Assembly (NCBI GenBank): GCA_951812955.1
Contig: OX638340.1
Coordinates: forward strand, 1,888,001-1,952,000
Reading direction: 5' to 3'
Length of the DNA: 64,000 bases
From: an uncultured Gemmatimonadota bacterium
GTDB lineage: Bacteria; JAAXHH01
Shown: positions 4,255 to 32,723 of the stretch, one piece after another
Layout of the letters: every line of letters begins with the position of its first letter
Numbering within the stretch: position 1 is the stretch's first letter
The notes under the pieces: model-generated
The model's database searches: none
Told to the model about the DNA's origin: nothing
The model's input: only the letters and a program-made list of their open reading frames with translations
Translations under genes and position numbers: made by a program

Positions 4255-4262
4255 ATCAGATT

Positions 4263-4973: not shown

Positions 4974-4982
4974 GGCGGCTTC

Positions 4983-7735: not shown

Positions 7736-7815
7736 GGCCTCCTTTTCACTGGTTCTTTCACCTTTACGGGTTCAGGTTATACTACCGTTACGCTTGCTTG
7801 TACATGCTTTTCATA

Positions 7816-10343: not shown

Positions 10344-10459
10344 ATGCCCGCTCGATGAAAGATGGGTGGTCTTGTCGGTCTCGGAGGTTTCATTGCGGCG
10401 CCGGCGTTAAAATGTCAAAAGAAAGGGCCCGAAGCTCGTTGCCCAACTTGCGGTACGTC

Positions 10460-12049: not shown

Positions 12050-12065
12050 CCGATTCCTTCCGGGT

Positions 12066-13715: not shown

Positions 13716-13808
13716 ACCTGAACTTACGCGTTCCTTTCACGGTTCTTCCACTCTTCGTGGGCTAAACCTGAACTTACGCGTTCCTTTCACGGTTCTTCCA
13801 CTCTTCGT
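13716..13808. repeat. perfect 43-bp tandem direct duplication (period 50 bp) at the RraA-like/hutU junction
   Basis: ACCTGAACTTACGCGTTCCTTTCACGGTTCTTCCACTCTTCGT at 13716-13758 and 13766-13808. The second copy encodes the last 10 codons plus stop of the RraA-like gene. Confidence 0.9.
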
Positions 13809-14448: not shown

Positions 14449-14677
14449 TCAGGTAACTCCTTTAATTGAAGAAAGAACAGATATTTGACGTATATAAAAC
14501 CGTCGCTGAGGGGAAGGTGAGTCGAGCGCTGTGCCTCGTAGGCTATAATCGATACGGGATGATCAAAAATCAAGGGAATTACGGAACTTACACCGCGTAA
14601 TCCACGGCCACCCGCGTCAGCAATTTGACCTGGTCCTCTCACCAAGTCGAATGAATCAATCGTTCGACGTAAATGCG

Positions 14678-14701
14678 TTGACACAGGCACGTACTTGTGT
14701 C
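14678..14701 (+). promoter_or_regulatory. 22-bp near-palindrome GACACAGGCAC|GTACTTGTGTC overlapping a TTGACA -35-like hexamer upstream of the DUF2911-like gene
   Basis: Dyad symmetry 9/11 per half-site, 70-90 bp upstream of the ATG at 14770. Confidence 0.3.
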
Positions 14702-14769
14702 ATTTTCTCCTGGCAAAGCCAACTTCAATGGCGTGTCAGAACAAGAACCGTATTCAGGAGGTTTTTTTT

Positions 14770-15330
14770 ATGCTTCGCATTACCCGTTTATTCAGTGTAC
14801 TGGCGCTTTCCGCGGCTTTCGTGGCCATGGGTAGCGGCGCCGTCGACGCTCAGACGACCATGCCTTCGGGCGAAGACAGTGCGGACATGGGCCGTGGCAT
14901 GGTGGAAGTATCGTTGATGGGCGGCAAGGTGTCCATCGACTACGGCCGTCCGGAAATGAAGGGCCGGGATATGCTGGCCATGGCGCCTGATGGATTCGTC
15001 TGGCGCTTCGGCAGCAACAAATCCACCACCTTCACTACGGAAGCCGATCTTATGTTCGGCGACCAGTCGCTGGCCAAGGGTTCCTACAGCGCGTGGATCA
15101 AGCACGTCGAAGGCGATTCCTGGACGCTCATTTTCAATAGCGAAGTGGGGATCTGGGGCGCACCCGGCGCCAGTCGGGAGAACGACGTGCTGGAAGTACC
15201 GCTGACCTACACCGTGGAAGATGAGATGGTCGAACGGCTCACCGTGAGACTCATGGTCATGGAAGACAAGGGTTTCGTGGGAGTCGGGTGGGGTACCCAC
15301 CGCCTGATTGTCAGTTTCTCGGCCAAGTAG
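14770..15330 (+). CDS. secreted DUF2911-like protein
   Basis: AGGAGG RBS at 14754-14759. Sec signal MLRITRLFSVLALSAAFVAMGSGAVDAQ. WRFGSNKSTT motif recalled from DUF2911. The upstream extension to 14695 lacks an RBS. Confidence 0.45.
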   Translation: MLRITRLFSVLALSAAFVAMGSGAVDAQTTMPSGEDSADMGRGMVEVSLMGGKVSIDYGRPEMKGRDMLAMAPDGFVWRFGSNKSTTFTTEADLMFGDQSLAKGSYSAWIKHVEGDSWTLIFNSEVGIWGAPGASRENDVLEVPLTYTVEDEMVERLTVRLMVMEDKGFVGVGWGTHRLIVSFSAK

Positions 15331-15360
15331 CTGCCGCGGCAAACGCGCGATGTAATCGTA

Positions 15361-15396
15361 AAAGGGACAGGTGCAATTCGCCTGTCCCTTTTCTTT
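15361..15396. terminator. bidirectional rho-independent terminator between convergent genes
   Basis: Perfect 11-bp stem AAAGGGACAGG / CCTGTCCCTTT with a 9-nt loop. T-runs follow on both strands. Confidence 0.6.
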
Positions 15397-16453
15397 ACCA
15401 GTTTTCAGGATTCAAGCCGACGCGGATTCCCGCTTCTTCGATCTGCCGCCAGGTGGTATCGTCGATGCTGATCCCTTCACGGCGCCGTTCCTCCGCCAGC
15501 CTGAATTCCGGTTCTCCCGGAACGAGAATCTCTTCGAATCCCGGCGCGGTCCGGCTGGATTTCACGTGCCGGATCAATCCCTCGATCTCCTGGTAGTACC
15601 AGTCCAGGTCCGAGAAGAACGAAATATCGAAGACGGTGAAGAGCACGCCGTTGCTTTCCACGATCTGTTCGCCCTGCGCGCAACCCTGTCCGCTCAGCGC
15701 ACCGCCCAGGACCTCCACCATCAAACCCAGGCTGTAACCCTTATGGGCGACGATTCCGCCCATGGGCAGGATGGCGCCGTTGGGGGGCGGTCCCTTGATG
15801 ACCGTGGGATCCGTGGTGGAGTTGCCTTCGTGGTCGATCAACCATCCTTCCGGAACCCGCACCCCCTTGTTCGCGGCGACCCGGACCTTCCCTTCGGCGA
15901 CGACGGAGGTAGTCAGGTCCACCATGATGGGATCGGCGTCTCGACGGGGCGCCGAAAAGGCGATTGGGTTGGTGCTGATTCGTCCGTCGATACCGCCAAA
16001 AGGCGGAATCTGGCGTCCGAAGCGGCCCGCGTTGACGAAGGCCAGCCCGATCAGACCTTCCCGGGCCGCCATGAGGGGATAGGCGCCTACGCGGCCCACG
16101 TGGCTCGTACGCCGGAGCGTAACCGTGGCCGTGCCGTGCTTACGTGCTTTCTTCATGGCGAGCCGCATGGCGATGGTGCCGCCAACCTGGCCGAGGGCGC
16201 CGCCGTTGTCCACCAGGGCCGTGCAGGGACTTTCTCTCACGATGCCCACGTCGGCCCGGGCCTTGAATCGTCCCTCGTCCATAATGGCCTTGACGTACTC
16301 CGGTATCCGAATGGCGCCGTGGGAATCATGGCCGAAGAGATTCGAGTCCACGAGGTGGTCCACGACGCTGCGGGCATCGTCCTCGGTACAGCCGGCCGCT
16401 TCCAGCACCTCGCAACCGATGCGATGGAGTTTATCGGGGGTAATTACGGGCAT
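15395..16453 (-). CDS. Ldh_2 family (malate/L-lactate/sulfolactate/ureidoglycolate dehydrogenase-like) NAD(P)H oxidoreductase
   Basis: 352 aa. Global match to the Ldh_2 fold (HDSHG, GGxxAxHKG motifs). Confidence 0.8.
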   Translation of the reverse strand: MPVITPDKLHRIGCEVLEAAGCTEDDARSVVDHLVDSNLFGHDSHGAIRIPEYVKAIMDEGRFKARADVGIVRESPCTALVDNGGALGQVGGTIAMRLAMKKARKHGTATVTLRRTSHVGRVGAYPLMAAREGLIGLAFVNAGRFGRQIPPFGGIDGRISTNPIAFSAPRRDADPIMVDLTTSVVAEGKVRVAANKGVRVPEGWLIDHEGNSTTDPTVIKGPPPNGAILPMGGIVAHKGYSLGLMVEVLGGALSGQGCAQGEQIVESNGVLFTVFDISFFSDLDWYYQEIEGLIRHVKSSRTAPGFEEILVPGEPEFRLAEERRREGISIDDTTWRQIEEAGIRVGLNPENW

Positions 16454-16535
16454 TGTCTTCCTTTCCAGGTCTTACGTGTGTACCGACTCTTCAAACGCGC
16501 GATCTGCAACCCGCGGGCGAATGAAACCGGTCGGG

Positions 16536-17570
16536 TCAGGTTCTGTATTTCTCCAGTTTCTTCTGTAATCCCGGCCGTTCGAGCACAGCCCTGTTCACCA
16601 CGTAGGGCGGCTCTTCGCCCCTGGAGACGGCCAGGGCCGCCTTGACGCAGTCGTGGCCGATATCACGAAACAGCTCATGGGTCCAGCACGACGCGTGGGG
16701 CGCCAGGATGACATTCGGGAGCGTGAGCAGCTCATCATCGGGATCGGGCGGCTCCCGTTCGAAGACATCGATGGCCGCGCCCTTGATCCAACCGTCCCGC
16801 AGGGCCCGGGTCAGCGCTTCCTGGTCGACGATCGCGCCACGGGCCGTGTTGACCAGGAAGGCGTCCTCCCTCATGAGGCGCAGTTCCCGCGCGCCGATCA
16901 GGTGCCGGGTGTGTTCGTTCAACGGGCAGTGGATGGTCACGAACGTGCTGCGCCGCAACAGGGTCTCACGGTCCACCAGTACAACGCCCAGTTGCGCGGC
17001 CTCTTCCGCGGACACCGCCGGATCGCTGATGAGGACTTCGGACGGCTCGAAGGGCGCCAGCATGCGCACCACCTCGCGGCCGATCATGCCCATGCCAATC
17101 AGGCCGACCACGCGGCCGCGGATCTCGCATCCCATGTGATCGAACCGGACACCCCAGTCGTCATTCCGTACGATGGCGTCCTTAATCGTCACCCGGTGGC
17201 AGAGTCCGAGCATCAGGGCCATCGTGGCGCTGGCCACGGGCCTCCGGGTGGCCTCCGGAGTGATGGTAATCATGACGTCCGCGTCTGTCGCCGCAGCGAG
17301 ATCGATCATGTCGTAGCCCACGCCGGTTCGCGCGATGAGCGCCAGGCGTTCGACGCCCGCGAAGCTTTCACGCGTGTAGGCCTGTCCCATGGATACGACC
17401 ACGTCGAAGTCTGAAAGCTGATCCGGGGTGACGGGACTCCGGTCTTCGGCAAGGTACGCGTGAGAGACTCCGGCCTTGTCCAGCAGGTCGACTCCGAAAT
17501 CGTCGAACACGACCCCGCCGTCTGGACCCAGCAGGTCGGCGACCAGGGCTACGCGGAATTCATCGGTCAT
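16536..17570 (-). CDS. D-isomer-specific 2-hydroxyacid dehydrogenase (NAD-binding)
   Basis: 344 aa. GLIGMGMIGREV Rossmann motif. Catalytic R/E/H pattern of D-2-HADH. Confidence 0.85.
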   Translation of the reverse strand: MTDEFRVALVADLLGPDGGVVFDDFGVDLLDKAGVSHAYLAEDRSPVTPDQLSDFDVVVSMGQAYTRESFAGVERLALIARTGVGYDMIDLAAATDADVMITITPEATRRPVASATMALMLGLCHRVTIKDAIVRNDDWGVRFDHMGCEIRGRVVGLIGMGMIGREVVRMLAPFEPSEVLISDPAVSAEEAAQLGVVLVDRETLLRRSTFVTIHCPLNEHTRHLIGARELRLMREDAFLVNTARGAIVDQEALTRALRDGWIKGAAIDVFEREPPDPDDELLTLPNVILAPHASCWTHELFRDIGHDCVKAALAVSRGEEPPYVVNRAVLERPGLQKKLEKYRT

Positions 17571-17598
17571 ATAATGTGTTCCAGGATTGCGGTGCGTG

Positions 17599-19656
17599 TC
17601 AGAACAGGATCTGGGACGTCGACTTGGCGATCAAGACCAGGGAGACGGCCGCCATGCCGATCAGCCCAAGGCCGCACCCGTACCCGGCGAGGATCACCGG
17701 CGCGTAGGCGCGCCATCGTTTCTCTCCGTAGCGCCGTCCGAAATAGAACCTTCCCAGCATGGCGCCGATGAACGTGGGCAGCGTGTAGTGAATCCACGCG
17801 CCCGTGCCCAGTCCGGCCACCAGGCCGTAGAAAAGCAGCGGCGGCGCTTTGAGCAGGCTCAGCACCCCGTACAGCGCGAACGTGAACCCCATTCCGGCGC
17901 CGATATACTCCCAGCGGATCAGTTGCCCGATCACGTCTGAGCCGCCCGGCAGGGTAGACTTGATCCAGATCGTCTCCATCGTGGCCTGCAGCGGCCACAT
18001 CTTCTCGACGAAAGGATAGGCCGCGGACGGTATGGGCGCCAGTTTCCAGATCAGGGCGTAGAACACGAAACTGAATACGATAAGCAGTATCAGGCTCAAT
18101 ATATAGAGTTTGACCAGGCTTGGAAATCGCGTTCGGGTGAGTTCCAGCTGCCGGAAAGTCGCCACGACGCCGCTGTGATCGAAGAGGGGAACCGGGGCGA
18201 ACCAGATCGCCACCCCCTTGTAGCCCGACAGGTAGAAGGACCCCTCTCTGGCGTAGGGGAAGGATGACCCGTAGGGAGAGCCCGTCAAACCTATCATGCG
18301 GGCGCCGATGTAGGAGAAAAAAGGCGTCCACAGAAACCCGAACACCACGGAGATCCACACGGGAAACGCCGGTTCAAGGTAGTAGACCAGGGCAATAAAG
18401 CACAGGGTCGAAACCACCCAGAGCGCGATGGGGATGGGCAGCCTGAAATCACCCCTTTCCGGCGGCGGTTTGCGGGGGCCCTGCCCGCCGGACGCCCCAT
18501 CCGGGTCTCTCCTCAACGCGCGGGCGAAGGCGACCAGGCCGATCAGGCCGATGACCAGCGAAGTGCCGATGGAAGAAAAACTCAGCCAGAAGTCGATGGT
18601 GTTGTTGATGGAGGTGGGTATGGTGCTCATCCCCGGCGTCCAACTGTGCAACAGGCCGAAGTGGTAGAGGAGCGGATTGGCAATAAAGGTGATGACGAAG
18701 GAACTGATGAAGGTGCCGACCACGATCCAGAAGGGCAGGACGAATCCCACCAGGAGGGTGGCCATGTCCGTTCCGATGCCGATGGGCGACGCGGGCAGCA
18801 CGTCCCGGAACCGCGGCGTGAAGTCCGCGAAGGGAATGGGGAAGACCTCCACACCCTTGGTCAGCACCACGCCGGAAATGGTGGGGACGACGACATATAA
18901 TATGCCCCAGCCCAGTCCGATCATGGCGCCGACGGTGAACATTCGCCATCGCCAGGTCTCTTCCCCCGCCGACGATTCGGCCAGGGCGGTAGCGCCGGCC
19001 GCCTGCACGGGCGCCAGGGGGAAGGGCAGGCGTTCGGTGTCGGCCGTAATCCGGAAGAGCACGTATCCCAGGGAGAGCGCGTTGACCAGGCCGAGGATGG
19101 ACACGAGGACGGCCAGGAGAATGGGCTCCAGCCACTCCATGGAGAAGAGGGTCCGGGTGATCAACGAATCGGCACCCCGGGGCGGGGAAACCCACTGTGG
19201 AAGAAGCTGGGCCAGGCCGTCCGCCTGGGGAGACTGGATCAGGTACTGGAACCAGATCATCTTGGCGAAGGGCGCGCCGTGCACCGACGACCCGGCCGCC
19301 ATACCGCTGGCGCCCAGTCCCGTGGCCGCAAGCCCGGCGGCAAGCCAGTAGAGGATGATGGCTTCCTGAGGCTTGAGCTTTATAAACAGGCGCTTGCCGA
19401 TCTCGATGAACATGATGATGGTGACCCATTCCGCGGCGCCCGCGAAACTCTTGCCCGTCACCAGTTCCAGGTAGATCGCGCCGGGGAGCATGACCAGCCC
19501 CACGAAGAAGGCGGCCCAGATGATGCGGCTGCTGAACCCGTCCTCGTAGGGCAGGTTGTCCGGAACGATCTGCCACCGGTCATCCTGTTCGGCTCCGGTG
19601 GGAATCGCTTCCCGATCCCGCTGTTCGTGCTGCTCGCGTCTGTTTTCGTCGCTCAT
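17599..19656 (-). CDS. polytopic integral membrane protein, uncharacterised family (paralog 1 of 3)
   Basis: 685 aa, at least 14 predicted TM helices. Shares ERLPFPLAP and aromatic-rich loop motifs with ORFs 25513-27615 and 34391-36388. Confidence 0.7.
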   Translation of the reverse strand: MSDENRREQHEQRDREAIPTGAEQDDRWQIVPDNLPYEDGFSSRIIWAAFFVGLVMLPGAIYLELVTGKSFAGAAEWVTIIMFIEIGKRLFIKLKPQEAIILYWLAAGLAATGLGASGMAAGSSVHGAPFAKMIWFQYLIQSPQADGLAQLLPQWVSPPRGADSLITRTLFSMEWLEPILLAVLVSILGLVNALSLGYVLFRITADTERLPFPLAPVQAAGATALAESSAGEETWRWRMFTVGAMIGLGWGILYVVVPTISGVVLTKGVEVFPIPFADFTPRFRDVLPASPIGIGTDMATLLVGFVLPFWIVVGTFISSFVITFIANPLLYHFGLLHSWTPGMSTIPTSINNTIDFWLSFSSIGTSLVIGLIGLVAFARALRRDPDGASGGQGPRKPPPERGDFRLPIPIALWVVSTLCFIALVYYLEPAFPVWISVVFGFLWTPFFSYIGARMIGLTGSPYGSSFPYAREGSFYLSGYKGVAIWFAPVPLFDHSGVVATFRQLELTRTRFPSLVKLYILSLILLIVFSFVFYALIWKLAPIPSAAYPFVEKMWPLQATMETIWIKSTLPGGSDVIGQLIRWEYIGAGMGFTFALYGVLSLLKAPPLLFYGLVAGLGTGAWIHYTLPTFIGAMLGRFYFGRRYGEKRWRAYAPVILAGYGCGLGLIGMAAVSLVLIAKSTSQILF

Positions 19657-19756
19657 GGATTACACTCGGCCCCGGCCCGGTACCTACCTATTCGCTCTTC
19701 CAATCTTCACTCCCCGATCACTGCTTATAATGCGCCATACGCGCCCATTCTCCCGC

Positions 19757-20914
19757 CTACTCCGCCCTGATATAGTTGCCCGCCTTGTCCCAGTCCGGCC
19801 GCGTCAGGCCGTTCAGGTCCCATACCACCTGTCCGGCGCGCACGGTCAGCAGGCATCGCAGCCGCCGGTCGCCGCGCATGCGGGCGAGGCCCGAATCGAC
19901 GAAGCCGAATTCCCCGTATTCCAGTTCCAGCACGGCGACGTCCGCCTCCGCGCCGATGCTCAGGGTACCCAGTTCCGGCCGCCGTATGGTCCGGGCGGGA
20001 TTGCGCGTGGAGCGCATGACCACGTCCTCCAGGGTCATCCCCATGTTCAGGCATTTCGACATGGTCGTGATCATGCTCGCGTTCGGCATAAGGGCACTGT
20101 ACTTGTGGAAATCCGTGCTGACCGTATCCGGCAGGAAGCCCTGCTCGATGGCCGGCACGGCGATGCGGAACCAGAAGCTGCCGCCGCCGTGGCCCAGATC
20201 GAACAGGATGCCCTTGTCCCGCGCCTCCCGGACGTAGTCGTTCACCCTGCCGCGATGGTCCAGCAAGGGGATGTGCTGTGCGTACAGGTGGGTGTGTATG
20301 TCGCCCGGACTCAGTTTCTTCAGCAGCAGGTCCCGGTAGCTGCGGTTCGGCTTCGGTGCGAAATCGATCATGGCAATGGCGCCGCTCCGCCGGGCCGCCT
20401 CGACGGCGCCGTCGACCGCCTCCCACCCCGGTCCGTTGAAATGGGCGGTCTTGGATCCCACGACGTGTTCCGGATACCTGCTGATCATGTCCGCGCAGGG
20501 CACGGGGTCCATCTCCGACACGTCCTGTTCCACGGCGCCTTCCATACCGGCGCCCACGATGTTGATCAGGGCCAGCACCCGGGTTATGGACTCGGCGATG
20601 ACCGTGTCCTTGAAGTCTTCGAATTTCTTCCACCCGGCGCCCCCTGTATCGAGCACCGTGGTCACGCCGTTGGGGAGCACGTGGGCATCGGGGAACACCC
20701 ATCCCCGGTAGCCGCCATAGGCGTGCATGTGGATGTCGATCAGGCCAGGCGTGACGTAATGGCCGTGGACGCGGGCGACCTGTCTCCCGTGCTCCGCCGG
20801 GATGTCGTGTCCAACCGCCGCAATCAGTCCGTCGTTGACGGCGACGTCCCGGCTATCGTTGATGCCGTTTTGGGGATCGATGACCTGTCCGCCCTTGATT
20901 ATGAGATCGTACAT
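19757..20914 (-). CDS. amidohydrolase-family metallohydrolase (dihydroorotase/deacetylase-like)
   Basis: 385 aa. GLIDIHMHAYGG N-terminal HxH metal motif. TIM-barrel amidohydrolase pattern. Confidence 0.8.
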   Translation of the reverse strand: MYDLIIKGGQVIDPQNGINDSRDVAVNDGLIAAVGHDIPAEHGRQVARVHGHYVTPGLIDIHMHAYGGYRGWVFPDAHVLPNGVTTVLDTGGAGWKKFEDFKDTVIAESITRVLALINIVGAGMEGAVEQDVSEMDPVPCADMISRYPEHVVGSKTAHFNGPGWEAVDGAVEAARRSGAIAMIDFAPKPNRSYRDLLLKKLSPGDIHTHLYAQHIPLLDHRGRVNDYVREARDKGILFDLGHGGGSFWFRIAVPAIEQGFLPDTVSTDFHKYSALMPNASMITTMSKCLNMGMTLEDVVMRSTRNPARTIRRPELGTLSIGAEADVAVLELEYGEFGFVDSGLARMRGDRRLRCLLTVRAGQVVWDLNGLTRPDWDKAGNYIRAE

Positions 20915-20924
20915 CGCTGCTCCT

Positions 20925-23900
20925 TCAGGTCAATTGCGGCGCTTCCGCGGGCGCTCGTTCCTCGACTTTCCGGTACTGGTCCTTGATGGACTCGGAAAGG
21001 GTACGCCACACGAGGAAACGTTTCCGCAGCACGGTGAAGAACCGGCGGTTGATGGTCTGCCACTGCGCAAGGTCCCCGCTGCGCCGGCGGATTGCGATCA
21101 TGATCCGGTACAGGCTTTCACCCGGTACGGGCTCCAGTTCCAGCGCCACGTCCTGGCTGATGGCGAGATCGTAGGGCGCGAGCCATACCGTCGCAGATAC
21201 ACGGTAGCCTTCTATAGGCCGGGCCGGTACCACGTCATGCGCCGTTCCCTCCGCGACGAAATCCTCGGCCGAACTGTCCTCGTGGGTCTGGAAAATGTGT
21301 GCCAGGTATCCCGCCAGCGGATAGGCCTCCGGGATGGTGACGGTAAAGGGAAACTCGAAGCGCCAGTCGTCGCCGTCGGGCGTTGGTGGCGCCCAGCGCC
21401 GGGTCACGTCCTCCACCGTCATGTCCGCGGCCTTTTTGGCCGGGTAGAGGGTGGACAGGAACACGACGACCATGACGACCACCGTCGCGTATACGGTCGA
21501 CAACGAGGAATAGTTCAGCGACAGGCCGCCCAGCAGGTCCCACTGCGACAGGCCCATGGTGATGATCTGGCCGGTGAGGTACCCGAACACAGCGCCTAGG
21601 GTGGCGAATACGGCCGCTTCGGCGATGAACAGCGCGGCAACGTGGTTCGGCGCCAGGCCCACGGCGCTGTATACGCCGATCTCCCGGAACCGTTCGAACA
21701 CGGCGCCCATCATGGTGTTCAGAACCAGGAACGCCGCGATGAGCACCGGGATGATCAGGTTGGCCAGGCCCGAGACCGAAGTGGCGCCAAGGGAGCTGTA
21801 GACCTTCACCTCGTCTTCCGTTCCGACAAACACGGCCAGGAGGACCCGTGACATGAAGGCCTCCACGGAATCGCGGAGTTGATCGCCATCCGCGAACCCC
21901 GTGATCGCCACGGACCGCGTGGATCCGTTCAGGTCGAGGGTCTGGCGGTAGGGCAGGACCAGCACGTTGCGGGATGGCAGGTGTTCGGAGGCCTGGATCG
22001 TTGACATGAATACCTCCACGTCCATTTCGGTCAACGAACGGGTCATGGAAAAACTGGCGGGCATGATGCTTTCGTCGTCCATGTCCCGGTAGGCGTCCAG
22101 GCCATCGGATTCGAGCAGTCCGATCACGGTATAGCGGCCGCCCAGGATCTCCACGACCGCCGTACCTACGTCCTCGGGCTCCACGTCCAGCCTTTCGGCC
22201 AGTTCCGTGGGCAGCAGACACACCGCCCTTTCGTCAGGACCGAACCATCGCCCGCCCGGTACCAGGTAGCGGTCCAGCCCGGAAATGGCCGGTTCGTCGG
22301 CGTGAAGTCCGAGCAGGGACTGTACCGTGGTGGAGGTTCCCCGGCCCGGCGCCCGCAGGTCTATGTAGGGGCTGGTGAGATCCTCGGGCTCGTACCACGA
22401 CCTGGGCACGACCTCGGCCTGCGCTTTGAAGGCGTTTTCCACGTAGGGCAGGAAAGAAGAGGGCAGCGAGTGCCACGACAGGTTGCGCATGAGGACGCCG
22501 TCGTACGGGGGGGCGTTCTCGCGGTCCAGCGTATAGAACTGGATGCCGGTCCTGAAGGAGGTGAAGGAAAGCACGGTAAAGGTCAGCAGGGTCAGCGTCA
22601 CCGCCGTCAGAGCCGTGCGCAGCTTCCGCTTGCGAAGGTTCGAAATCCCGAGCGATATGGCCACCGCCGTGGCGCTCAGCCGGCCGATGTCCGCCTCGTG
22701 AAGGCCGGCCGCCGACCGGGTCAGGTTCTTCATCTCCGTGTCGAACCGCGTGACGATCATGGTAATGATAATCAGCGCCATGGCCAGGATGATGAAGGCG
22801 AGGAAAACCATGTAGGGCGTCAGGCTGAGTTGAAAGGCCGGATGCACGTTCTGCAGCAACAAAAAGACCGCCGCGAAGATCACGCCCACCGCGAGCAGCC
22901 GCTTGCGAATGTCCGGGAACCCGAAGAACAGTCGCTCGAGGAAGAAGCAGAAGGGTACCAGCAGCATGAAGTAGAAAACGATGCCGTCCACCGTGTCGTC
23001 CGCGGCGTACCGTACATCGGGATAGGCGCGGGCCTCGTAGCCCCACGCTTCCCTCGACCGGGCCACGAAGGCATCGTAGCGGCGGTCTTCCAGGGCTTCC
23101 CGCGCCGCCCGAAGCGCCTGCGTGCTTTCTTCATGCAACTCGGCTGCCCGGGCGTTCGTCACGCCGTGGTCCTCCAGTTTCATCAGCCGCGCCCTGTTGA
23201 GCGACCACAGGTCCAGGGCGCTCTGGTAGAAGGGATAGAGAATCGGCCCCCGGTCCGCCGTGAAGCCTTGTCCCTGTGCCAGGGCCATGACGTCGTCGGA
23301 GATGCTTTCCGGCGGATCGTCGAGCCAGGACTCCGGCGTATTGGTCAGCAGGTACTTGACGCCCCGGGGACCCGCGCTCATGAACATCTTGACGCGGTCC
23401 TCGGGCTTTGCGAAGACCACCGCGGCGTTGGTCATCCAGTTGCCGAAGAAACTCTGGTCTTCCACGAAGGCCGCCCCGTACTTTCGCAGTGGGCTGTTGT
23501 CCCGTCCGAGCACGGTCAGGTTGTCGAGAGCGACGAAGACGCCGGGATCGACGATATCGAAGAGGTTGATCTCCTCGCACGGAAAGAGGACCTGTATGGT
23601 ATTGTTCACCTTGGACGAATTCGGCACCGCGAGAGGGAAGGTGGCGTCGCCCTCCTCCCCCAGGTCCGGCGCGTACACGACCCTGCCTGTGTCGTCCAGG
23701 CCATAGCTGCGAACCTCGGTCGGGCCCTTGGAGTCGCGGACCATGGAAAAACGGAAGTAACCCATCGAATCCGCGTGGGTGACCATGAACCCCCGCACGC
23801 CGCTGTGGCTCTGGTAGCCCGGCTCGTAGACGACCAGGGCATCGGATACCGGGGTGTTGGGCTTGAAGAAATCCACGGTGCGGTCGAACTCGAGGACCCG

Positions 23901-25511
23901 GCCCTCGATGTCGCGGCCGTCGTCTTTCAGCCGAATGGACTCGTCCACGTCGAAGGCCTCGGGGTCCGACAGCATGGCCGGCAGCAAGGTGCCGATGGTC
24001 CTGATCTGCCGGACCAGGTTGGGGAAATCGACGTGCTCGACCCGGTCGACAGGCGTATCGATCAGCAGCCTGTTGTCGTTCACCGTGGAGAAGGTCATGC
24101 CATGCAGCCCCGCGAGCGTGACCATCTCATGATCGAAGGCTGGACCCGCGGGCATGTAGCTTTCCTGGGACCTGAGCGAAGGCGTCAGCGTATTGAGGTA
24201 GGCCGTCCGGCTGTCCTCCCGATCGTACACGCCGGCCTTGCGTGCGTAATTCATGTACCGGTCCGCATAGGGTTCGTACAGTATATCCAGATTCGAGGCG
24301 AAGAAGATGTAATCGCCGTAGCTGAACAGCCCGACCTGGTCCATCCGGCTGGTCAGGTCCAGACCCAGGAAAAGCGTGAAGGGGATCCGGTCCGCCTCAG
24401 GTATGCGTTCCAGGAAAAAATCGTCCGTCCGATAGTGGCGGTCCAAGAAGTCGTTTATGCCCTGCATGCCGTGGAAATGGGCGGACGTGGCCAGAAACAG
24501 CACGGTGTATCCGGGAGGATGGGCGCGGAACACGTCCAGCAGTTCCAGCATCGCCGCGATGCCGCCCGCGCTCTCGGCGCCCGGGGCCTGTCCGGGTACG
24601 ACCGACATGGCGTCATAGAATGCCGACAACACGACGACGCGGTCCTTCCACTTTTCTGTCCCGTCGCCGCCGGGAATCGGTTCGTCCCGACCCTGTATCC
24701 ACCCCATGACGTTCCAGGTTTCAGCCCGTTCCCACGACATGCGACCCCGGATCGTCACGTCGATGTTGCCGGGTCCTTCGGACCGGGCGGCCTGCAGCAC
24801 CTTCGCCGCGTGGGGATCGGGAATCCAGAACCGCGGGACGTCTGCGGGCACGTCCAGGATCTTGCGCTGGGCCTGGTTGTTGGTCACCGCGCCCGGACCG
24901 CTGTCGTAGAACAGGATAGCCTGCGCGCCCAGCATCCGCGCGTTGAGATACTGGTCTCGCCCGTCGAAATCGATCAGGACGATGCTTCCCTCGATCTCTT
25001 TCCCGTTGAAGGCCTGGAATTCGCCCCGGCGTCCATAGTGCAGTGGGCCTTTGATGCCGTTGGGAAAGGAATTCAGCCGGACCAGATTGGGCCAGAACTG
25101 GTACACCGGGATTTCGGTTTCAACTGAATCGTGCAGGGTAAGCGTGAACCCGTGGTCGACCGGCGAGGAAACGGTGAAGGTATCGATGGTTACTTCGGAC
25201 AGTCCCCCTGCATGGAACGCGTCGACCACGTACTCCATGGCCGCGCGGTTCCCCGGGTAGCCCACGACGCGCGACGGATGTGCGCTCATCGACCGGACGT
25301 GGGCCTCGACGCCCTCCACGGTCACGATTTCGGAGACTTCTTCCCAGGTCACTGGAGCTTCTTCGAGGGGCCTGGGAGTCACGTCATCGGGAAGCGAGAC
25401 GAACCTCAGGATCACGTGCTCCGTGACCCAGGCCGGACCGGCCACGGCCACGGCGAGGAAGAGCAGGACGCCCACGACAAGAAAGAAAGTTCCGAAAATC
25501 CGAGAATACAC
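20925..25511 (-). CDS. giant membrane protein: N-terminal TM anchor + PA domain + M28-like (apparently non-catalytic) domain + two FtsX/MacB-like permease units
   Basis: 1528 aa. PA-like SIVLIDFDGRDQYLNARMLGAQAILFY. M28-like block with SAFYDA / GAESAGG / SAHFHG where catalytic H, D, EE are substituted. TM cluster at ~880-960. LRKRKLRTALTAVTLTL TM plus periplasmic domain. C-terminal FtsX 4-TM with FERFREIGVYSAVGLAPN. Confidence 0.75.
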   Translation of the reverse strand: MYSRIFGTFFLVVGVLLFLAVAVAGPAWVTEHVILRFVSLPDDVTPRPLEEAPVTWEEVSEIVTVEGVEAHVRSMSAHPSRVVGYPGNRAAMEYVVDAFHAGGLSEVTIDTFTVSSPVDHGFTLTLHDSVETEIPVYQFWPNLVRLNSFPNGIKGPLHYGRRGEFQAFNGKEIEGSIVLIDFDGRDQYLNARMLGAQAILFYDSGPGAVTNNQAQRKILDVPADVPRFWIPDPHAAKVLQAARSEGPGNIDVTIRGRMSWERAETWNVMGWIQGRDEPIPGGDGTEKWKDRVVVLSAFYDAMSVVPGQAPGAESAGGIAAMLELLDVFRAHPPGYTVLFLATSAHFHGMQGINDFLDRHYRTDDFFLERIPEADRIPFTLFLGLDLTSRMDQVGLFSYGDYIFFASNLDILYEPYADRYMNYARKAGVYDREDSRTAYLNTLTPSLRSQESYMPAGPAFDHEMVTLAGLHGMTFSTVNDNRLLIDTPVDRVEHVDFPNLVRQIRTIGTLLPAMLSDPEAFDVDESIRLKDDGRDIEGRVLEFDRTVDFFKPNTPVSDALVVYEPGYQSHSGVRGFMVTHADSMGYFRFSMVRDSKGPTEVRSYGLDDTGRVVYAPDLGEEGDATFPLAVPNSSKVNNTIQVLFPCEEINLFDIVDPGVFVALDNLTVLGRDNSPLRKYGAAFVEDQSFFGNWMTNAAVVFAKPEDRVKMFMSAGPRGVKYLLTNTPESWLDDPPESISDDVMALAQGQGFTADRGPILYPFYQSALDLWSLNRARLMKLEDHGVTNARAAELHEESTQALRAAREALEDRRYDAFVARSREAWGYEARAYPDVRYAADDTVDGIVFYFMLLVPFCFFLERLFFGFPDIRKRLLAVGVIFAAVFLLLQNVHPAFQLSLTPYMVFLAFIILAMALIIITMIVTRFDTEMKNLTRSAAGLHEADIGRLSATAVAISLGISNLRKRKLRTALTAVTLTLLTFTVLSFTSFRTGIQFYTLDRENAPPYDGVLMRNLSWHSLPSSFLPYVENAFKAQAEVVPRSWYEPEDLTSPYIDLRAPGRGTSTTVQSLLGLHADEPAISGLDRYLVPGGRWFGPDERAVCLLPTELAERLDVEPEDVGTAVVEILGGRYTVIGLLESDGLDAYRDMDDESIMPASFSMTRSLTEMDVEVFMSTIQASEHLPSRNVLVLPYRQTLDLNGSTRSVAITGFADGDQLRDSVEAFMSRVLLAVFVGTEDEVKVYSSLGATSVSGLANLIIPVLIAAFLVLNTMMGAVFERFREIGVYSAVGLAPNHVAALFIAEAAVFATLGAVFGYLTGQIITMGLSQWDLLGGLSLNYSSLSTVYATVVVMVVVFLSTLYPAKKAADMTVEDVTRRWAPPTPDGDDWRFEFPFTVTIPEAYPLAGYLAHIFQTHEDSSAEDFVAEGTAHDVVPARPIEGYRVSATVWLAPYDLAISQDVALELEPVPGESLYRIMIAIRRRSGDLAQWQTINRRFFTVLRKRFLVWRTLSESIKDQYRKVEERAPAEAPQLT

Positions 25512-25512
25512 G

Positions 25513-27507
25513 TCAGTCTATCCCGTAGATATGATGCCCCGCGTGGGGGAACCATATGTAATCAACGAACATGGAGATGACCACGCCGGTAGCCACACCG
25601 AAGATAAGGCCCAGGAAGAAGGGCTGACCCTTTCGGTACAGCTCGATACCGCCGACCCACATCATGATGCTCTTGATGACCCAGCAAACGAACATGGACG
25701 ACACGATAGCGCGTGCGGGCCACGAGTAGGAAAGGAAGAAACCGAGGGGATGCAGCGGCCAGCCGGGCAGCCGGGCCCTCAGGGTCATGAGCAGGAACAT
25801 GAGCCAGCCGCCCACCATGAAGAACATGAGGCGGGCCGTGTCCGGTCCGAAGGGATCCCGCATCTTGGTGAGCGTTTCGTTGTAGGGGATGGTCGATCCG
25901 ATCCTTCCGAACCACCATCCGTTGGTGAACTGCCGCGTGCCCTGGTCGAATCCCAGGTAGATCGTCCAGATCAGCGCGATCACCACGCCGATCACCGCGG
26001 CGGACAGGACTGTCCAGCCCAGTCCACGGTGCCAGCGCGCACCGATCTCTGAAAGCTTGGCCACCTGCATGAAGGCGGGCATGAAGGTCGATTTGATCTC
26101 GCTGACGGGTCCATAGGTCTGGGCCATCGCCGTCATGGTGGACATGGACAGGTTCGCCGACCCGACCGAGTAGAATACGAGCACCTGGGCGATCATGGGC
26201 GAACGCACGTAGGGCAGCCCGGCTTCGGCGATGATGCGGGAGACGCCGATATAGATGACGAAGACGCCCGCGAGGAGGAACACGGCAATGGGCACGCTCA
26301 TGCCCAGCTGGTTCAGCCACACGATCCCGTAGACGAACCCGCCGAGAAAGCCGAAGACGGCGACCCGGTAGGGCAGCATCTCATCGGAGTCGTCCAGGTC
26401 CGATCTGCGGCCGAACGCATGGGAGAACACCGCGCGGATGTGAAACCTGGCCCGCCACAGCCCCCAGGCTACGAACACGATGAAGGCGCCCATGTTCTGC
26501 CAGTCCAGCATGGGGTGGATTGACGTGTAGTTGTCCCTGCCAGGTATGTCGTAACCGATCCGTTGTGCGATGCCTACCTGGATGATCCCGATCATGTAGA
26601 ACACCCAGAACCCGGCCAGCACGTCCAGGTTGACGAAGTAGGAAATACCGAGGATGGCTGGCCGGAAGTTGATCTCCAGCGGAGGGAATCCTTCGCCGAA
26701 GACAATGGGCGGCGCCGACCCGAAATAGGGAAACTGGGGCACGACCGGTGTGAAGTATCCGATAATGTTGTACATCATCACGCAGAAAGGGATGGAAAAG
26801 CCGATCCAGAAACGTTTCTCGGTCATAAATTCCGGGATGCGTCCCGACGATTCCATGCCTCGCGTCAAGGCGAGGGGGATCTGCATCATGGGGAATACCA
26901 GTTTCTCGTGTTCGACCCACTGTCTTCTGAGGATCACCACGAGACACAGCCCCATGAAGATGATCGGTACGATGAAGGTCAGCCACCAGAACAGGGGAAT
27001 GCCCCACACGCTCCAGGGTATGGACTCACCGGGCGGGATACCGTCGACGAACCAGGTCAGCGCATTGCCCTGGTTGGTGACGTTCGCCCAGGGTTTCAAA
27101 TAGGGATAAAAGTATTCTGCCCACTGGTTCTCGGGCGTCGCCAGGAGATTCGGCGCCATGAGCGTGGAGATAAACGGGGCGCCCATGCCGTTGGTCGACA
27201 GCCCGGAAGCCGCCATGCCCATGGCCAGGGGGATGACGAACTCGTGGGACGTCAGGGCCCAGTCTTTCTTCCACCGGGCCAGTATCACGTTGAACAGGAT
27301 GAGATACGCAAAGGCCAGGAACAACGCACCGATGTGAAGATGGTCCGCGCCGAGTTGAGACGAGGCCATGGTGTACTGAAAATAGGGGACGATCAGGGAA
27401 ATCAGGACGACGCTCGTCAGGCCCAGGAGGATGGATCTCGGCGTAATGATCCGGGTCGCGGTCGTCGGGCCGGCGGAAGAGGATACACTTTGCTGGGCTG
27501 AGGCCAT
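25513..27507 (-). CDS. polytopic integral membrane protein, uncharacterised family (paralog 2 of 3)
   Basis: Start taken at MASAQQ (ORF extends to 27615). Stop is 1 nt from the start of the giant gene. C-terminal YRKGQPFFLGLIFG...DYIWFPHAGH matches paralog 3. Confidence 0.7.
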   Translation of the reverse strand: MASAQQSVSSSAGPTTATRIITPRSILLGLTSVVLISLIVPYFQYTMASSQLGADHLHIGALFLAFAYLILFNVILARWKKDWALTSHEFVIPLAMGMAASGLSTNGMGAPFISTLMAPNLLATPENQWAEYFYPYLKPWANVTNQGNALTWFVDGIPPGESIPWSVWGIPLFWWLTFIVPIIFMGLCLVVILRRQWVEHEKLVFPMMQIPLALTRGMESSGRIPEFMTEKRFWIGFSIPFCVMMYNIIGYFTPVVPQFPYFGSAPPIVFGEGFPPLEINFRPAILGISYFVNLDVLAGFWVFYMIGIIQVGIAQRIGYDIPGRDNYTSIHPMLDWQNMGAFIVFVAWGLWRARFHIRAVFSHAFGRRSDLDDSDEMLPYRVAVFGFLGGFVYGIVWLNQLGMSVPIAVFLLAGVFVIYIGVSRIIAEAGLPYVRSPMIAQVLVFYSVGSANLSMSTMTAMAQTYGPVSEIKSTFMPAFMQVAKLSEIGARWHRGLGWTVLSAAVIGVVIALIWTIYLGFDQGTRQFTNGWWFGRIGSTIPYNETLTKMRDPFGPDTARLMFFMVGGWLMFLLMTLRARLPGWPLHPLGFFLSYSWPARAIVSSMFVCWVIKSIMMWVGGIELYRKGQPFFLGLIFGVATGVVISMFVDYIWFPHAGHHIYGID

Positions 27508-27729
27508 GGAAAGGGCCGGATTGTGATACTTGCGGTGACTGAAATACGGTAATGAATCTAGTCTGCGGGTCCAGAATATGTAAAATGGCAGACGGTATAA
27601 GTCAAAGAAAAACAAAGTTCCATGAGGTCCTGAGCCACCATCGGCCAGACCTTTTCGTTGTTGACACGATTCCGGTTTGCGGGGATATTTCCATACCTTG
27701 ATGTACCCGTTTCATACGAGGGATTTACA

Positions 27730-30270
27730 GTGAAGGCCGAAACGAGAGCCGCCATAGACCGCTTGCTGAACAGGTACATCGCCTTCATCTGCCGCCATCC
27801 GGCGAAGATCCTCCTGGGTGCGCTGCTGACCGCATTGCTCTCCGCGCATTTCGCATCCAGGCTTCAGCTTAAAACCGACTTCGTGGAACTGCTCCCGGAA
27901 GGCTACCGGAGCGTCGACGACATTCACCGGATCACGGAGCGCGTCGGCGGCATCGGCAACCTGACCGTCGTCATTGAAACGGAAGACCTGACTTCGGCAC
28001 AGCGGTTCGCCGACGACCTCGCCGGCAGGATCCATTCCGATCTTCCCGAGGGGTATATCCGGTATATCGAGTACCGGGTGGACGAGGAGAAGCGCTTCTA
28101 CGAAGACCACAAATATCTGTATGCGGATCTGGAGGACCTGGAAGAGATCCAGAACCGCCTGAGCCGACAGATCCTGAAGACGAAACTGGAGCAGAACCCC
28201 CTCTTCGTTTCCGAGGAAGACCTCGGGCTGGAAACGGAAGACGAACCGTTTACCTTGAGCGATCTGGAAGAGAAGTACGAAAAGAAAGCGGGGGAGAAGC
28301 TGGACAAGTGGGTCGACGGCTATTTCACGGGGCACGACGAGCAGGGGCAGTTTCTCGTCATGGTCCTGAAACCCTTCGGTTCGTCGACCGGCGTTTCCTT
28401 TTCGCGGGACCTGTGCGAACGGGTACTCGCCATCGTAGAAGGGCTTGACCCCCCGTCATACCATCCATCGCTGAAAGTGGGCCTCACCGGCAAGTACCGC
28501 CTGATCCTGGACCAGTACTCTTCCGTCCAGCGGGAGATCTTCTCGTCCGCCGCCTTCACACTGACCCTGGTGGCCCTGGTCATCTTCCTCTACTTCCGCA
28601 CCATCGTCCCGGTCATCAACATCACGCTGGTCGTGGTCGTCGGCATACTCTGGACGTTCTGCCTGACCTATTTCCGCATTGGCTACCTCAACATGCAGAC
28701 CGCCTTCCTGGGCGCCATCATCATTGGGAACGGCATCAACTACGGCCTGATCCTCATGGCCAGGTACAAGGAAGAAAGGCTGCAGGGAGCGGACGCCCTT
28801 GAAGGCGTGCAGATCGCCTTTCGGAATACGATTACCGCGACGGTCACAAGCGCGGCGTCCACGGGCCTCGCATACGGCACGCTCATGATCACTGATTTTC
28901 GCGGCTTCAATCACTTCGGGTTCATCGGCGGCCTCGGCATGCTGCTGTGTTGGATTTCCACCTTTTCTATCATGCCGGCGCTGCTGATGCTGTGGGACCG
29001 CACCCGTTTCGGGCGGAAGACCTGGACGCGGAAGGTCTCGCGGGGCGGGTCGCTGACCCATCTCGCCAACCTGGTGCAAAAGGCGCCGCAGGCCGTGGTG
29101 GGCACGAGTATCTCCCTGGTCGTGCTGGGTACCGCCCTCCTGGTGTGGTGGCTTCCGAATTCCTTCGAATACGACTTCTCGAAACTGCGAAACGAACCGC
29201 GGGGCGATACTTACGAGCGGATCCTCAACCACCGCGTAAACGCCCTGTTCGGTATATCGCAGTCTCCCGCGGTTATCCTCGCGGACCGCCTGGACCAGGT
29301 CCCGGGCATCCGGCGCGCCGTGCTGGACAAGAAAGAAGCGGAGAAAGAGGGTCCCAAACCGACCATCGACCGGGTGCGAACCATCTTCGATCTGCTGCCG
29401 GAGGACCAGGAAGACAAGATCGACGTGCTCTGGGACATAGATTACATGCTGGACACCAATCCGCCCGACGAACTTGGCATACCGCCCGACCAGCTCGAAA
29501 GGATCAACGCGTTCCGAGAGAACCTGAGCCTGGATGAAATCACCGTTGATGACCTGCCCCAGGCGCTCACGCGTCCCTTCGAGGAGCGGGACGGGACAGT
29601 GGGCAGGCTCGTCTACGTCTACCCGAGGTCGGACGCCGGACTCTGGAACGGCAGGAACCTGATCCGGTTCGCGGAAGTCGTCCGTTCCAACCGCCTGCCA
29701 GACGATGAAGTCATCTATTCCTCCGGTGAGGCCGTGGTATTCGCCGACATGCTGAAGGCCGTGGACCGCGACGGCCCCATTGCCACGGTCGCCTGCTTCG
29801 TGGGCGTTATCGCGCTACTCTTACTGGCATTCCGCAGCGTCCACGCGTCGGTCGTGATCCTGGCTTCCCTGCTGGGCGGCATGCTGGTCATGGGCGGCGT
29901 CATCGCCGTCTTCGACATCAAGGTGAATTTCTTCAACTTCATCGTCATACCCACTACGCTGGGGATCGGCGTGGACTACAGCGTGAACCTGTATCAACGC
30001 TACCGCCTTGACGGACGCGGTTCCATACGTAATATGGTACAGCATACAGGCGCGGCCCTGGTCATGTGTTCGTCCACGACGCTGATCGGTTACACTTCTC
30101 TCATGCTCACGTCCAACCGGGGCCTGCATTCCTTCGGCATCATGGCCAACGTGGGAGAGATCGCCACGCTGGCAACGGCCCTGGTCGCGCTGCCCGCCTA
30201 TCTGCTTATTATGGAAAAGCGGATGAGGAACAAGGCGCCTGGAACGCGGAGTCCGGTTCACGCCGCTTGA
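27730..30270 (+). CDS. MMPL/RND-superfamily exporter (HpnN/MmpL-like, two SSD-type 6-TM bundles)
   Basis: GTG start after GAGGGA RBS (ORF extends to ATG 27658). Two 12-TM halves with large periplasmic loops. Typical MMPL N-terminus. Confidence 0.8.
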   Translation: MKAETRAAIDRLLNRYIAFICRHPAKILLGALLTALLSAHFASRLQLKTDFVELLPEGYRSVDDIHRITERVGGIGNLTVVIETEDLTSAQRFADDLAGRIHSDLPEGYIRYIEYRVDEEKRFYEDHKYLYADLEDLEEIQNRLSRQILKTKLEQNPLFVSEEDLGLETEDEPFTLSDLEEKYEKKAGEKLDKWVDGYFTGHDEQGQFLVMVLKPFGSSTGVSFSRDLCERVLAIVEGLDPPSYHPSLKVGLTGKYRLILDQYSSVQREIFSSAAFTLTLVALVIFLYFRTIVPVINITLVVVVGILWTFCLTYFRIGYLNMQTAFLGAIIIGNGINYGLILMARYKEERLQGADALEGVQIAFRNTITATVTSAASTGLAYGTLMITDFRGFNHFGFIGGLGMLLCWISTFSIMPALLMLWDRTRFGRKTWTRKVSRGGSLTHLANLVQKAPQAVVGTSISLVVLGTALLVWWLPNSFEYDFSKLRNEPRGDTYERILNHRVNALFGISQSPAVILADRLDQVPGIRRAVLDKKEAEKEGPKPTIDRVRTIFDLLPEDQEDKIDVLWDIDYMLDTNPPDELGIPPDQLERINAFRENLSLDEITVDDLPQALTRPFEERDGTVGRLVYVYPRSDAGLWNGRNLIRFAEVVRSNRLPDDEVIYSSGEAVVFADMLKAVDRDGPIATVACFVGVIALLLLAFRSVHASVVILASLLGGMLVMGGVIAVFDIKVNFFNFIVIPTTLGIGVDYSVNLYQRYRLDGRGSIRNMVQHTGAALVMCSSTTLIGYTSLMLTSNRGLHSFGIMANVGEIATLATALVALPAYLLIMEKRMRNKAPGTRSPVHAA

Positions 30271-30323
30271 GACCGACTTCTACAGCCCTGCCGTTCGGAA
30301 ATGAGTCGAACAAGGCCGGTTAC

Positions 30324-32680: not shown

Positions 32681-32723
32681 TGGATCGAGCGGGACGGTAC
32701 ATACGGAAGTAGAGGCGAATCCC

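Follow-up and report, generated by a model that had tools for sequence, protein, structure and literature searches.

A membrane module of a giant FtsX-type fusion protein and OPT-like transporters, with lineage-specific soluble enzymes, in an uncultured Gemmatimonadota bacterium

A cluster of six genes is found on the minus strand of a 64,000 nucleotide (nt) stretch of DNA from an uncultured Gemmatimonadota bacterium (assembly GCA_951812955.1, contig OX638340.1, positions 1,888,001–1,952,000). This whole stretch is referred to here as the window. In the order of reading, the cluster encodes a DUF6785/DUF6784 membrane protein, a giant fusion protein with PA/M28-like and FtsX-type regions, an amidohydrolase, a second large membrane protein termed famX, a D-2-hydroxyacid dehydrogenase and an Ldh_2-family dehydrogenase. 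The unit that is kept together by selection is smaller, i.e. the giant protein and one or two OPT-like membrane proteins. The six-gene cluster is a lineage-specific elaboration of this three-gene membrane module, and the three soluble enzymes are lineage-specific additions to it.

Genes on the same strand with short gaps are frequent among bacteria and are not significant alone; the non-random signal is the linkage across genomes and not co-directionality. A scan for giant homologues gave 80 genomic loci, 85 in all, and the linkage counts use the first 83 of these, restricted to the 59 loci in which the giant homologue is flanked by 5 kb or more on either side. The window's own clade is defined by a giant protein identity of at least 60% and comprises 11 of the 59 loci. 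The other 48, with 38–47% identity, are termed distant. A DUF6785 or famX gene is present within 10 kb of the giant gene in 58 of the 59 loci, and both are present in 32; a DUF6785 gene is beside the giant homologue in 48. The core genes are often adjacent and on the same strand, 27–210 nt apart. Their order varies and includes DUF6785-giant-famX, giant-DUF6785-famX, famX-DUF6785-giant, a tandem DUF6785-giant-DUF6785-giant and divergent pairs. An all-against-all clustering of open reading frames from the 85 loci places the three core families in 80, 59 and 47 loci, while the next cluster is found in 19. A TPR protein and an AP_endonuc_2 protein had seemed recurrent, but the unbiased clustering rules out a further universal partner. 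The preliminary description had called for a search of gene-neighborhood conservation around the membrane proteins. The search bears out the linkage of the giant gene with DUF6785 or famX; it does not extend to the three enzymes, which are confined to the window's clade.

The linkage is not symmetrical. An independently chosen famX homologue has a giant gene 1 kb away, and two distant DUF6785 genes (loci L087 and L088) have no giant gene nearby. Thus the transporter can stand alone, but the giant gene is almost never found without an OPT-like gene. This asymmetry fits an accessory role for the giant protein. The DUF6785 genes of L087 and L088 occur in pairs beside sulfatases, PhyH, AP_endonuc_2 and GFO/IDH/MocA oxidoreductases.

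The giant family has 356 homologues of about 1500 amino acids (aa), which are found in Gemmatimonadota, Latescibacterota, Zixibacteria, Handelsmanbacteria and planctomycete-labelled bins. The closest loci are those of Gemmatimonadota metagenome-assembled genomes, with up to 98% protein identity. Related bins belong to collections from sponges (PMC10469786), and the window probably derives from a Gemmatimonadota bacterium of sponges or sediments. Genomes usually carry two or three giant modules. One 5.46-Mb contig holds three giant paralogues (P0040, P0048 and P0106), the highest number per genome, and an 8-Mb genome has the module as the tandem duplication DUF6785-giant-DUF6785-giant (L002, positions 1241–14545). 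In other clades the neighbors of the module are pyrimidine genes, a PPIase, an FGE-sulfatase, NHL proteins and TPR proteins.

FamX is encoded by gene 4 (positions 17599–19656, minus strand) and has a chain length of 685 aa. Profile comparisons and a structural model point to a divergent OPT-family transporter. The famX sequence has no Pfam match, gives no match to DUF6785 or OPT (PF03169) even at E ≤ 10, and finds nothing in the PDB by a sequence-only search. However, the AlphaFold2 model (pLDDT 72, pTM 0.79) is matched by Foldseek to YS1 (PDB 7wst and 7wsr) with E-values of 3e-8 and 7e-8, probability 1.0 and TM-scores of 0.56–0.65, and nothing besides YS1 is significant. YS1 is the Fe(III)-phytosiderophore transporter of barley and a member of the OPT family (reference list of PMC9691689). 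A search with the famX profile gave 1054 relatives among 1.84 billion cluster representatives. Its second-tier hits (E = 1e-64 to 1e-93) pass the Pfam OPT model over its full length with 30–56 bits (cut-off 25.8), and one of 28 famX members itself shows a Pfam OPT match, at 7e-7. Homologues of famX are labelled “peptide transporter” in NCBI records, and famX is 51% identical to the product of a gene adjoining a giant homologue in a Latescibacteria locus.

Some representatives among the famX-profile hits (P0361–P0367, P0373 and P0385) are 810–1083 aa long, and their match to the profile is split into two parts, which implies that a large domain is inserted or appended near profile position ~560. 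One long representative of the family displays a weak Reg_prop match.

Gene 1 (positions 25513–27507, minus strand) is predicted to encode a polytopic membrane protein of 664 aa that matches Pfam DUF6785 with 369 bits and DUF6784 with 78.5 bits. By BLASTP it shows 23% identity to famX over 150 aa (E = 0.003). A profile-profile comparison by hhalign, built from 28 famX and 29 DUF6785 sequences, aligns the two families end to end over 554 columns (93.8% probability, E = 1.8e-7, 19% identity). Because of this remote homology to famX, the DUF6785/DUF6784 protein is probably an OPT-superfamily secondary transporter. The two proteins had been described as paralogous membrane proteins of about 680 aa. 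This term is too strong: end-to-end homology is seen by profile-profile comparison only, and the identity of 19–23% rules out recent or close paralogy. They had also been proposed as substrate channels or sensors. Sequence and model indicate a carrier-like protein of the OPT superfamily for the first of these roles, and nothing supports the second. The resemblance to this superfamily also makes peptide or amide catabolism, which was the direction suggested, a reasonable one.

The window contains a third gene of the DUF6785+DUF6784 type at positions 34391–36388 on the minus strand, ~9 kb from the giant gene. It encodes 665 aa (375 and 81 bits), its product is only 32% identical to the copy in the cluster, and orthologues are found at the same position in related genomes. 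Its closest relatives elsewhere (35–37% identity) are located divergently upstream of a second giant paralogue in the same genomes.

The giant protein is encoded by gene 2 (positions 20925–25511, minus strand; 1528 aa), with Pfam matches to FtsX, Peptidase_M28, MacB_PCD and PA. A hydropathy scan shows eight hydrophobic segments, at amino acid positions 5–23, 840–858, 868–886, 902–920, 968–986, 1246–1264, 1291–1309 and 1332–1350. By the topology predicted from these segments, residues ~30–830 and the MacB core domain are extracytoplasmic and the C-terminal domain is cytoplasmic. The ectodomain is followed by three helices, a cytoplasmic stretch, the MacB-type unit and a cytoplasmic tail of 163 residues.

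An extracytoplasmic PA/M28-like domain encompasses residues ~56–510 (positions 23982–25346, minus strand). Peptidase_M28 is matched with 30.2 bits (cut-off 21.3), and the profile match to 2ek8 has an E-value of 5.9e-17. For PA the score is 21.9 bits where the cut-off is 23.9; many giant homologues have PF02225 on record, and the alignment to the PA-bearing 2ek8 and 6hc6 covers the insert. Residues 511–920 (positions 22752–23981, minus strand) comprise an extracytoplasmic region without family (511–830) and then the three extra helices.

The MacB/FtsX-type unit is at residues 966–1365 (positions 21417–22616, minus strand) and consists of a first transmembrane helix (TM1), an extracytoplasmic core domain and TM2–4. 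The Pfam scores are 51.3 bits for FtsX (cut-off 25.5) and 28.0 bits for MacB_PCD (cut-off 27). PDB sequence matches are YtrF, MacB, LolC and LolF, and Foldseek matches are 5xu1 (E = 2e-7) and the MacB periplasmic domain (E = 7e-5, probability 1.0). On sequence and model together, the assignment of this unit is solid.

The conserved cytoplasmic C-terminal domain, residues 1366–1528 (positions 20928–21416, minus strand), contains many invariant residues. As with the middle region and the extra helices, no Pfam match was found for it at E ≤ 5. The model of fragment 511–1528 is poor (pLDDT 58, pTM 0.34), and only the MacB-type core and the C-terminal domain are usable; confidence is low at residues 511–920, and pLDDT is about 60–85 in the C-terminal domain. 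The fold of the latter weakly resembles SRPBCC/Bet v 1/START ligand-binding domains (Foldseek E = 3e-3 to 6e-2), where the ascription of the matches to this domain is indirect. It is not an ABC ATPase.

The former metal site of the M28-like domain has been rewritten. Site residues were read from the profile alignment to 2ek8 and 6hc6 and counted over 112 giant homologues. The position of the first His ligand, 298, holds Y, H or F (56, 29 and 27 sequences); the bridging Asp is replaced by E313 (109 of 112), the catalytic Glu by H345 (all 112) and the neighboring ligand Glu by F or H at position 346 (85 and 24). The second Asp is retained as D385 (111 of 112), and the last His is aligned with the invariant E462. 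Y299, D300, H345 and E462 are invariant. An M28 co-catalytic zinc aminopeptidase has five canonical metal ligands (His, Asp, Glu, Asp, His) and the catalytic Glu, a set that the giant protein does not have; the replaced ligands and the change of the catalytic Glu to H345 rule out membership among the active enzymes. The preliminary description assumed a working M28 peptidase, which is not sustained. The counts indicate, however, that the site is under strong constraint and is conserved rather than decayed. In its altered form it might still hold a metal or act in catalysis, or it might serve for binding.

The three soluble enzymes have a much narrower distribution than the module. All six genes are present in the same order in the 11 clade loci and in L084, where the giant protein is 66% identical to that of the window (66–67% in L014, which is one of the 11). 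L085, with 69% identity, keeps DUF6785-giant-amidohydrolase-famX, and a convergent ADOP-like permease replaces the dehydrogenases. At the distant loci the amidohydrolase and the 2-hydroxyacid dehydrogenase are found in none of 48, and Ldh_2 in two, on the opposite strand. With the enzymes lacking there and the dehydrogenases gone in L085, the combination of six genes as one pathway is not upheld. Nevertheless, in all clade members examined, among them L014, L084 and L085, the amidohydrolase gene is flanked by two of the core membrane genes.

The amidohydrolase gene (gene 3, positions 19757–20914, minus strand) encodes a metallohydrolase of amidohydrolase/deacetylase type in the cog3964 group. 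It matches NCBIfam PRK09237 over the full length with 367.2 bits, 4 bits under the equivalog cut-off of 371, and its nearest PDB chains are 8je0, 2ogj, 8wzy and 2ics, of the cog3964 group. A literature search found no paper mentioning PDB 8je0. Gene 5 (positions 16536–17570, minus strand) encodes a member of the D-isomer-specific 2-hydroxyacid dehydrogenase family (Pfam 2-Hacid_dh_C, 185 bits; nearest PDB entries 1wwk and 6bii), which is nearest to the glyoxylate reductase and phosphoglycerate dehydrogenase types. Gene 6 (positions 15395–16453, minus strand) encodes an Ldh_2-family dehydrogenase (353 bits; nearest PDB entries 1v9n, 2g8y and 2x06), nearest to the type-2 malate, L-lactate and sulfolactate dehydrogenases. 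Neither dehydrogenase reaches any equivalog cut-off in NCBIfam. A deacylase together with D- and L-type 2-hydroxyacid dehydrogenases would be chemically coherent, e.g. for acylated or depsipeptide-like compounds.

The FtsX-type unit raises the question of an ATPase. Pfam finds no ABC_tran domain in the giant protein, and the window gave no ABC ATPase in a tblastn search that used two such proteins as queries. Within 10 kb of the giant gene, no ABC ATPase is present in 67 of the 85 loci, and those present in the other 18 are always clade-specific neighbors. This argues against a dedicated ATPase partner encoded beside the giant gene, although an ATPase may be encoded elsewhere in the genome. 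On present evidence the giant protein falls short of a complete type VII ABC transporter. A subclade of Latescibacterota is the only case with an ATPase regularly near the giant gene. There, genes for a 281-aa protein, a PqqD-like protein, a 228-aa FtsX and an ABC ATPase come after the module (L003, positions 16788–19583; also L031, L036 and L062).

The reading that we favor, with a probability of about 0.45, is that the giant protein serves as an accessory of OPT-like importers of peptide-like substrates, together with clade-specific cytoplasmic enzymes. The operon would be built around an inner-membrane module of the giant protein and one or two OPT-superfamily secondary transporters. Anchored by the three extra helices and the MacB/FtsX-type four-helix unit, the PA/M28-like ectodomain would bind a peptide-like substrate on the outside of the cytoplasmic membrane and might trim it as well. 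The giant protein would then hand the substrate to the OPT-like carriers, which would import it by means of the proton gradient. In the window's clade the embedded amidohydrolase/deacylase may hydrolyze or deacylate the imported compound, and the appended dehydrogenases may oxidize the resulting 2-hydroxy acids or reduce 2-oxo acids; this appears to be the most economical reading of their presence. Gene structure, domain content, remote OPT homology, the missing canonical M28 zinc ligands, the lack of an ATPase nearby and the linkage counts are observed; direction of transport, class of substrate, contact between giant protein and transporter, and the roles of the enzymes are all deduced. Binding of substrate by the M28-like ectodomain is only a guess.

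Several points weigh against this reading. At the M28 site, residues of other types occupy three of the five ligand positions, a conserved Glu stands in for the bridging Asp and a His for the catalytic Glu; since most canonical ligands are missing, trimming of peptides is doubtful. MacB/FtsX units normally work with an ABC ATPase, and their action is directed outward, as in efflux, lipoprotein release or hydrolase activation; by analogy this habit argues against uptake by the giant protein itself. The placement of DUF6785 in the OPT superfamily hangs on a single profile-profile match of 93.8%, and no paper mentioning DUF6785 or DUF6784 was found in a literature search. The sulfatase and sugar-type neighbors at L087 and L088 hint that substrates need not be peptides and are possibly sulfated or sugar-derived. 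The three enzymes are not part of the module in the 48 distant loci. In addition, unrelated flanking genes (MMPL, bshC, DUF2911 and RraA) are conserved in the same clade genomes. Conserved order within the clade is therefore weak functional evidence, with the exception of the amidohydrolase.

These last two points lead to the most serious rival, a mosaic operon, which is rather unlikely. Here only the membrane trio would be functional as a unit; the amidohydrolase and dehydrogenases would be unrelated genes that landed in one lineage and share a transcript at most. The counts at the distant loci, the absence of the dehydrogenases from L085 where the module is retained, and the quite different neighbors in other clades are what such an operon would leave, as is the conservation of the flanking genes within the clade along with the enzymes. 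The spacer between amidohydrolase and famX, which ranges from ~8 to 160 nt among relatives and is poorly conserved, also agrees with it. The position of the amidohydrolase does not fit so readily. The gene lies 10 and 100 nt from the core genes on its two sides and stays between them in L014, L084 and L085, and a retained insertion that interrupts a co-transcribed module usually serves that module. The chemical coherence of an esterase/amidase with D- and L-type 2-hydroxyacid dehydrogenases is a further point against a chance assembly.

A second rival, which we consider improbable, gives the giant protein a role in the cell envelope. It would be a type VII mechanotransmission device like FtsEX, MacB or LolCDE, driven by an ATPase from another part of the genome. 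Its task would be to regulate or deliver the hydrolase-like ectodomain that it carries, either for processing of the cell wall or of surface proteins or for export; the OPT-like proteins would then recycle the released peptides or export a substrate. FtsX and MacB_PCD are the best-supported membrane part of the giant protein, and known FtsX systems activate extracytoplasmic hydrolases. The Latescibacterota subclade with a small FtsX + ABC_tran pair ~4 kb downstream, and the ADOP-type orphan permeases of related phyla, which also lack adjacent ATPases and of which an ADOP-like gene is present in L085, are in the same direction. On the other hand, ABC ATPases are lacking in the window and in most loci and are otherwise clade-specific, the cytoplasmic side of the giant protein bears a non-ATPase domain, and the M28-like site differs from the site of standard peptidases. 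Moreover, the presence of two or three paralogues of the module per genome suggests nutrient uptake more than a housekeeping role in the envelope.

A closer coupling than that of the accessory reading may also be considered, although it is distinctly unlikely. The giant protein and the OPT-like carriers would form one physical machine of a new kind, in which a MacB/FtsX mechanotransmission scaffold that has lost its ATPase is coupled to a proton-driven carrier. Conformational changes of the carrier would either power substrate capture at the M28-like ectodomain or be controlled by it, and the SRPBCC-like tail would sense the imported ligand.

Very unlikely, finally, is uptake of metal chelates, in which the carriers would act like YS1/YSL on nicotianamine- or phytosiderophore-like metallophores with the M28-like domain as extracytoplasmic receptor: the sole solved structures matching famX are those of YS1 and the remodelled site has metal-friendly residues (E313, H345, D385 and E462), but YS1 is the only OPT structure among the significant hits and is therefore uninformative on substrate, the cluster contains no genes for metallophore synthesis, TonB receptors or metal regulators, and NCBI labels and the Pfam-positive intermediates indicate the general OPT family.

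With regard to expression, the six genes look like one transcription unit. All six minus-strand open reading frames are confirmed by the open reading frame listing, Pfam and NCBIfam, and the co-directional arrangement, the order and the gaps of 1–100 nt agree with the preliminary description. The gaps are 82, 28, 100, 10 and 1 nt from the Ldh_2 end to the DUF6785 end, and the junction between DUF6785 and the giant gene (1-nt gap) reads TGA-c-GTG. The 3′ end, where a bidirectional terminator had been described, displays a hairpin at positions 15360–15392 that is shared with a convergent DUF2911 gene (positions 14695–15330, plus strand). This has a perfect 12-bp stem that is preceded by an A-run and followed by a U-run, and a folding free energy (dG) of −22 kcal/mol (z = −4.5); none of 200 shuffles folds equally well. 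Sequence and predicted fold thus bear out the bidirectional intrinsic terminator.

The 5′ end needs a correction. The open reading frame that begins at TTG 27615 is present, but ATG 27507 is most likely the start of gene 1, because the 664 aa then predicted are the length of the closest homologues (655–664 aa). The cluster spans 15395–27507 with this start and reaches 27615 with the open reading frame as listed. Since the gene would start at 27507, a promoter-like site (TTTACA-18 nt-TAGATT; positions 27584–27555, minus strand), found by a consensus scan, falls upstream of it, 48 nt 5′ of the probable ATG. The site is known only by its match to the consensus, from which the promoters of Gemmatimonadota may deviate.

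Internal promoter-like and terminator-like matches are not above shuffled expectation (6 against 3.7 ± 2.2, and 9 against 10.0 ± 2.9) and therefore argue neither way. A chance juxtaposition was to be recognized, according to the preliminary description, by internal promoters and terminators together with a lack of synteny; the signals are at chance level and gene order is kept in relatives. An Rfam search of positions 14400–28400 gave no regulatory RNA at E ≤ 1. This result and the poor conservation of the amidohydrolase-famX spacer speak against a regulatory RNA in the spacers.

The genes around the cluster were also noted. Divergent from the operon, at positions 27658–33845 on the plus strand, are genes for an MMPL/RND-type membrane protein, bshC, a PIG-L deacetylase (bshB-like) and a GT4 glycosyltransferase (bshA-like). 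The last three are a bacillithiol synthesis set. The listed bshC open reading frame overlaps the 3′ end of the MMPL gene by ~200 nt, so that a later start codon is probable. Directly adjoining the cluster's neighborhood on the downstream side are histidine-utilization genes on the minus strand, hutH (positions 10460–12049) and hutU (12066–13715); an Amidohydro_1 protein at positions 7816–9063 (minus strand) may be hutI. An RraA-like gene is at positions 13774–14448.

Farther away, two nearby DUF4097 “toastrack” proteins are encoded at positions 38734–40314 and 41220–42506 on the plus strand, and overlapping 270-aa open reading frames are found on both strands between them (40353–41174). Two tandem genes for tungsten-type aldehyde:ferredoxin oxidoreductases (AFOR) are located at positions 50155–52044 and 52071–54143 (minus strand), followed by a pyridine nucleotide-disulphide oxidoreductase gene at 48721–50091. 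Gemmatimonadota are generally described as aerobic or facultative, thus the tandem AFOR set is unexpected.

The module is an unusual union of an ATPase-less FtsX/MacB-type permease, a peptidase-like domain with a rewritten and conserved site, and two divergent OPT branches. Each domain family is known, but no description was found of the giant architecture, the rewritten M28 site or the near-obligate pairing with two OPT branches; a literature search that combined FtsX, M28 and Latescibacteria gave nothing relevant. Gemmatimonadota, Latescibacterota and Zixibacteria are abundant and mostly uncultured heterotrophs of sediments, soils and sponges. Because of its two or three copies per genome, the module is probably a major route by which these bacteria handle an external substrate. 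Solving its function would assign a role to DUF6785/DUF6784, would reveal that of an orphan FtsX-type unit without ATPase and would give a handle on nutrient acquisition in these groups.

Among known systems, the OPT family (TC 2.A.67, PF03169; e.g. YS1) resembles famX in size (~620–690 aa) and in the fold of the famX model, and proteins found with the famX profile score above the Pfam OPT cut-off along the full model. FamX itself, however, scores nothing against PF03169, and DUF6785/DUF6784 is connected to the family only by way of famX, at 19% identity. No OPT transporter is known to pair with an FtsX-type protein.

The type VII systems MacB, FtsEX and LolCDE (PF02687 + PF12704) share with the giant protein a four-helix FtsX unit that has a large extracytoplasmic domain between TM1 and TM2, and the sequence and fold matches include MacB, YtrF, LolC/LolF and Spr0694-0695. 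The giant protein differs from these in having no fused or neighboring ABC ATPase, in its ~960 extra N-terminal residues (signal-anchor, PA/M28-like domain, unassigned domain and three helices), in its ~160-aa non-ATPase cytoplasmic tail and in its genomic tie to OPT-like secondary transporters. No type VII system is known to partner transporters of this kind. The ADOP duplicated orphan permeases (TIGR03434) are likewise FtsX-type proteins of related phyla without an adjacent ATPase gene. They have two MacB_PCD+FtsX repeats and no peptidase-like domain, and a score of 21.7 bits against a cut-off of 622 rules out the giant protein as a member.

The window amidohydrolase aligns over its full length with the cog3964 amidohydrolases (Atu3266, PDB 2ogj; EF_0837, PDB 2ics) but is below the equivalog cut-off. 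Atu3266, the only member of the group known to be characterized, is reported to hydrolyze acetyl-(R)-mandelate-type esters (Ornelas et al. 2013).

The PA-domain M28 aminopeptidases of Aneurinibacillus (2ek8) and Bacillus (YwaD, 6hc6) resemble the giant protein at the sequence level in the M28 fold and probably in its PA insert, but the giant family reads F/Y/H298, E313, F/H346, D385 and E462 at the ligand positions, with H345 at the catalytic position. Nicalin (7tm3/6w6l) is closer in this respect, since it too is membrane-anchored and without the canonical zinc site, and the transferrin receptor has a further inactive M28-like domain. Unlike decayed pseudoenzymes, the giant family displays replacement residues that are nearly invariant over 112 sequences, which suggests a new site for binding or catalysis.

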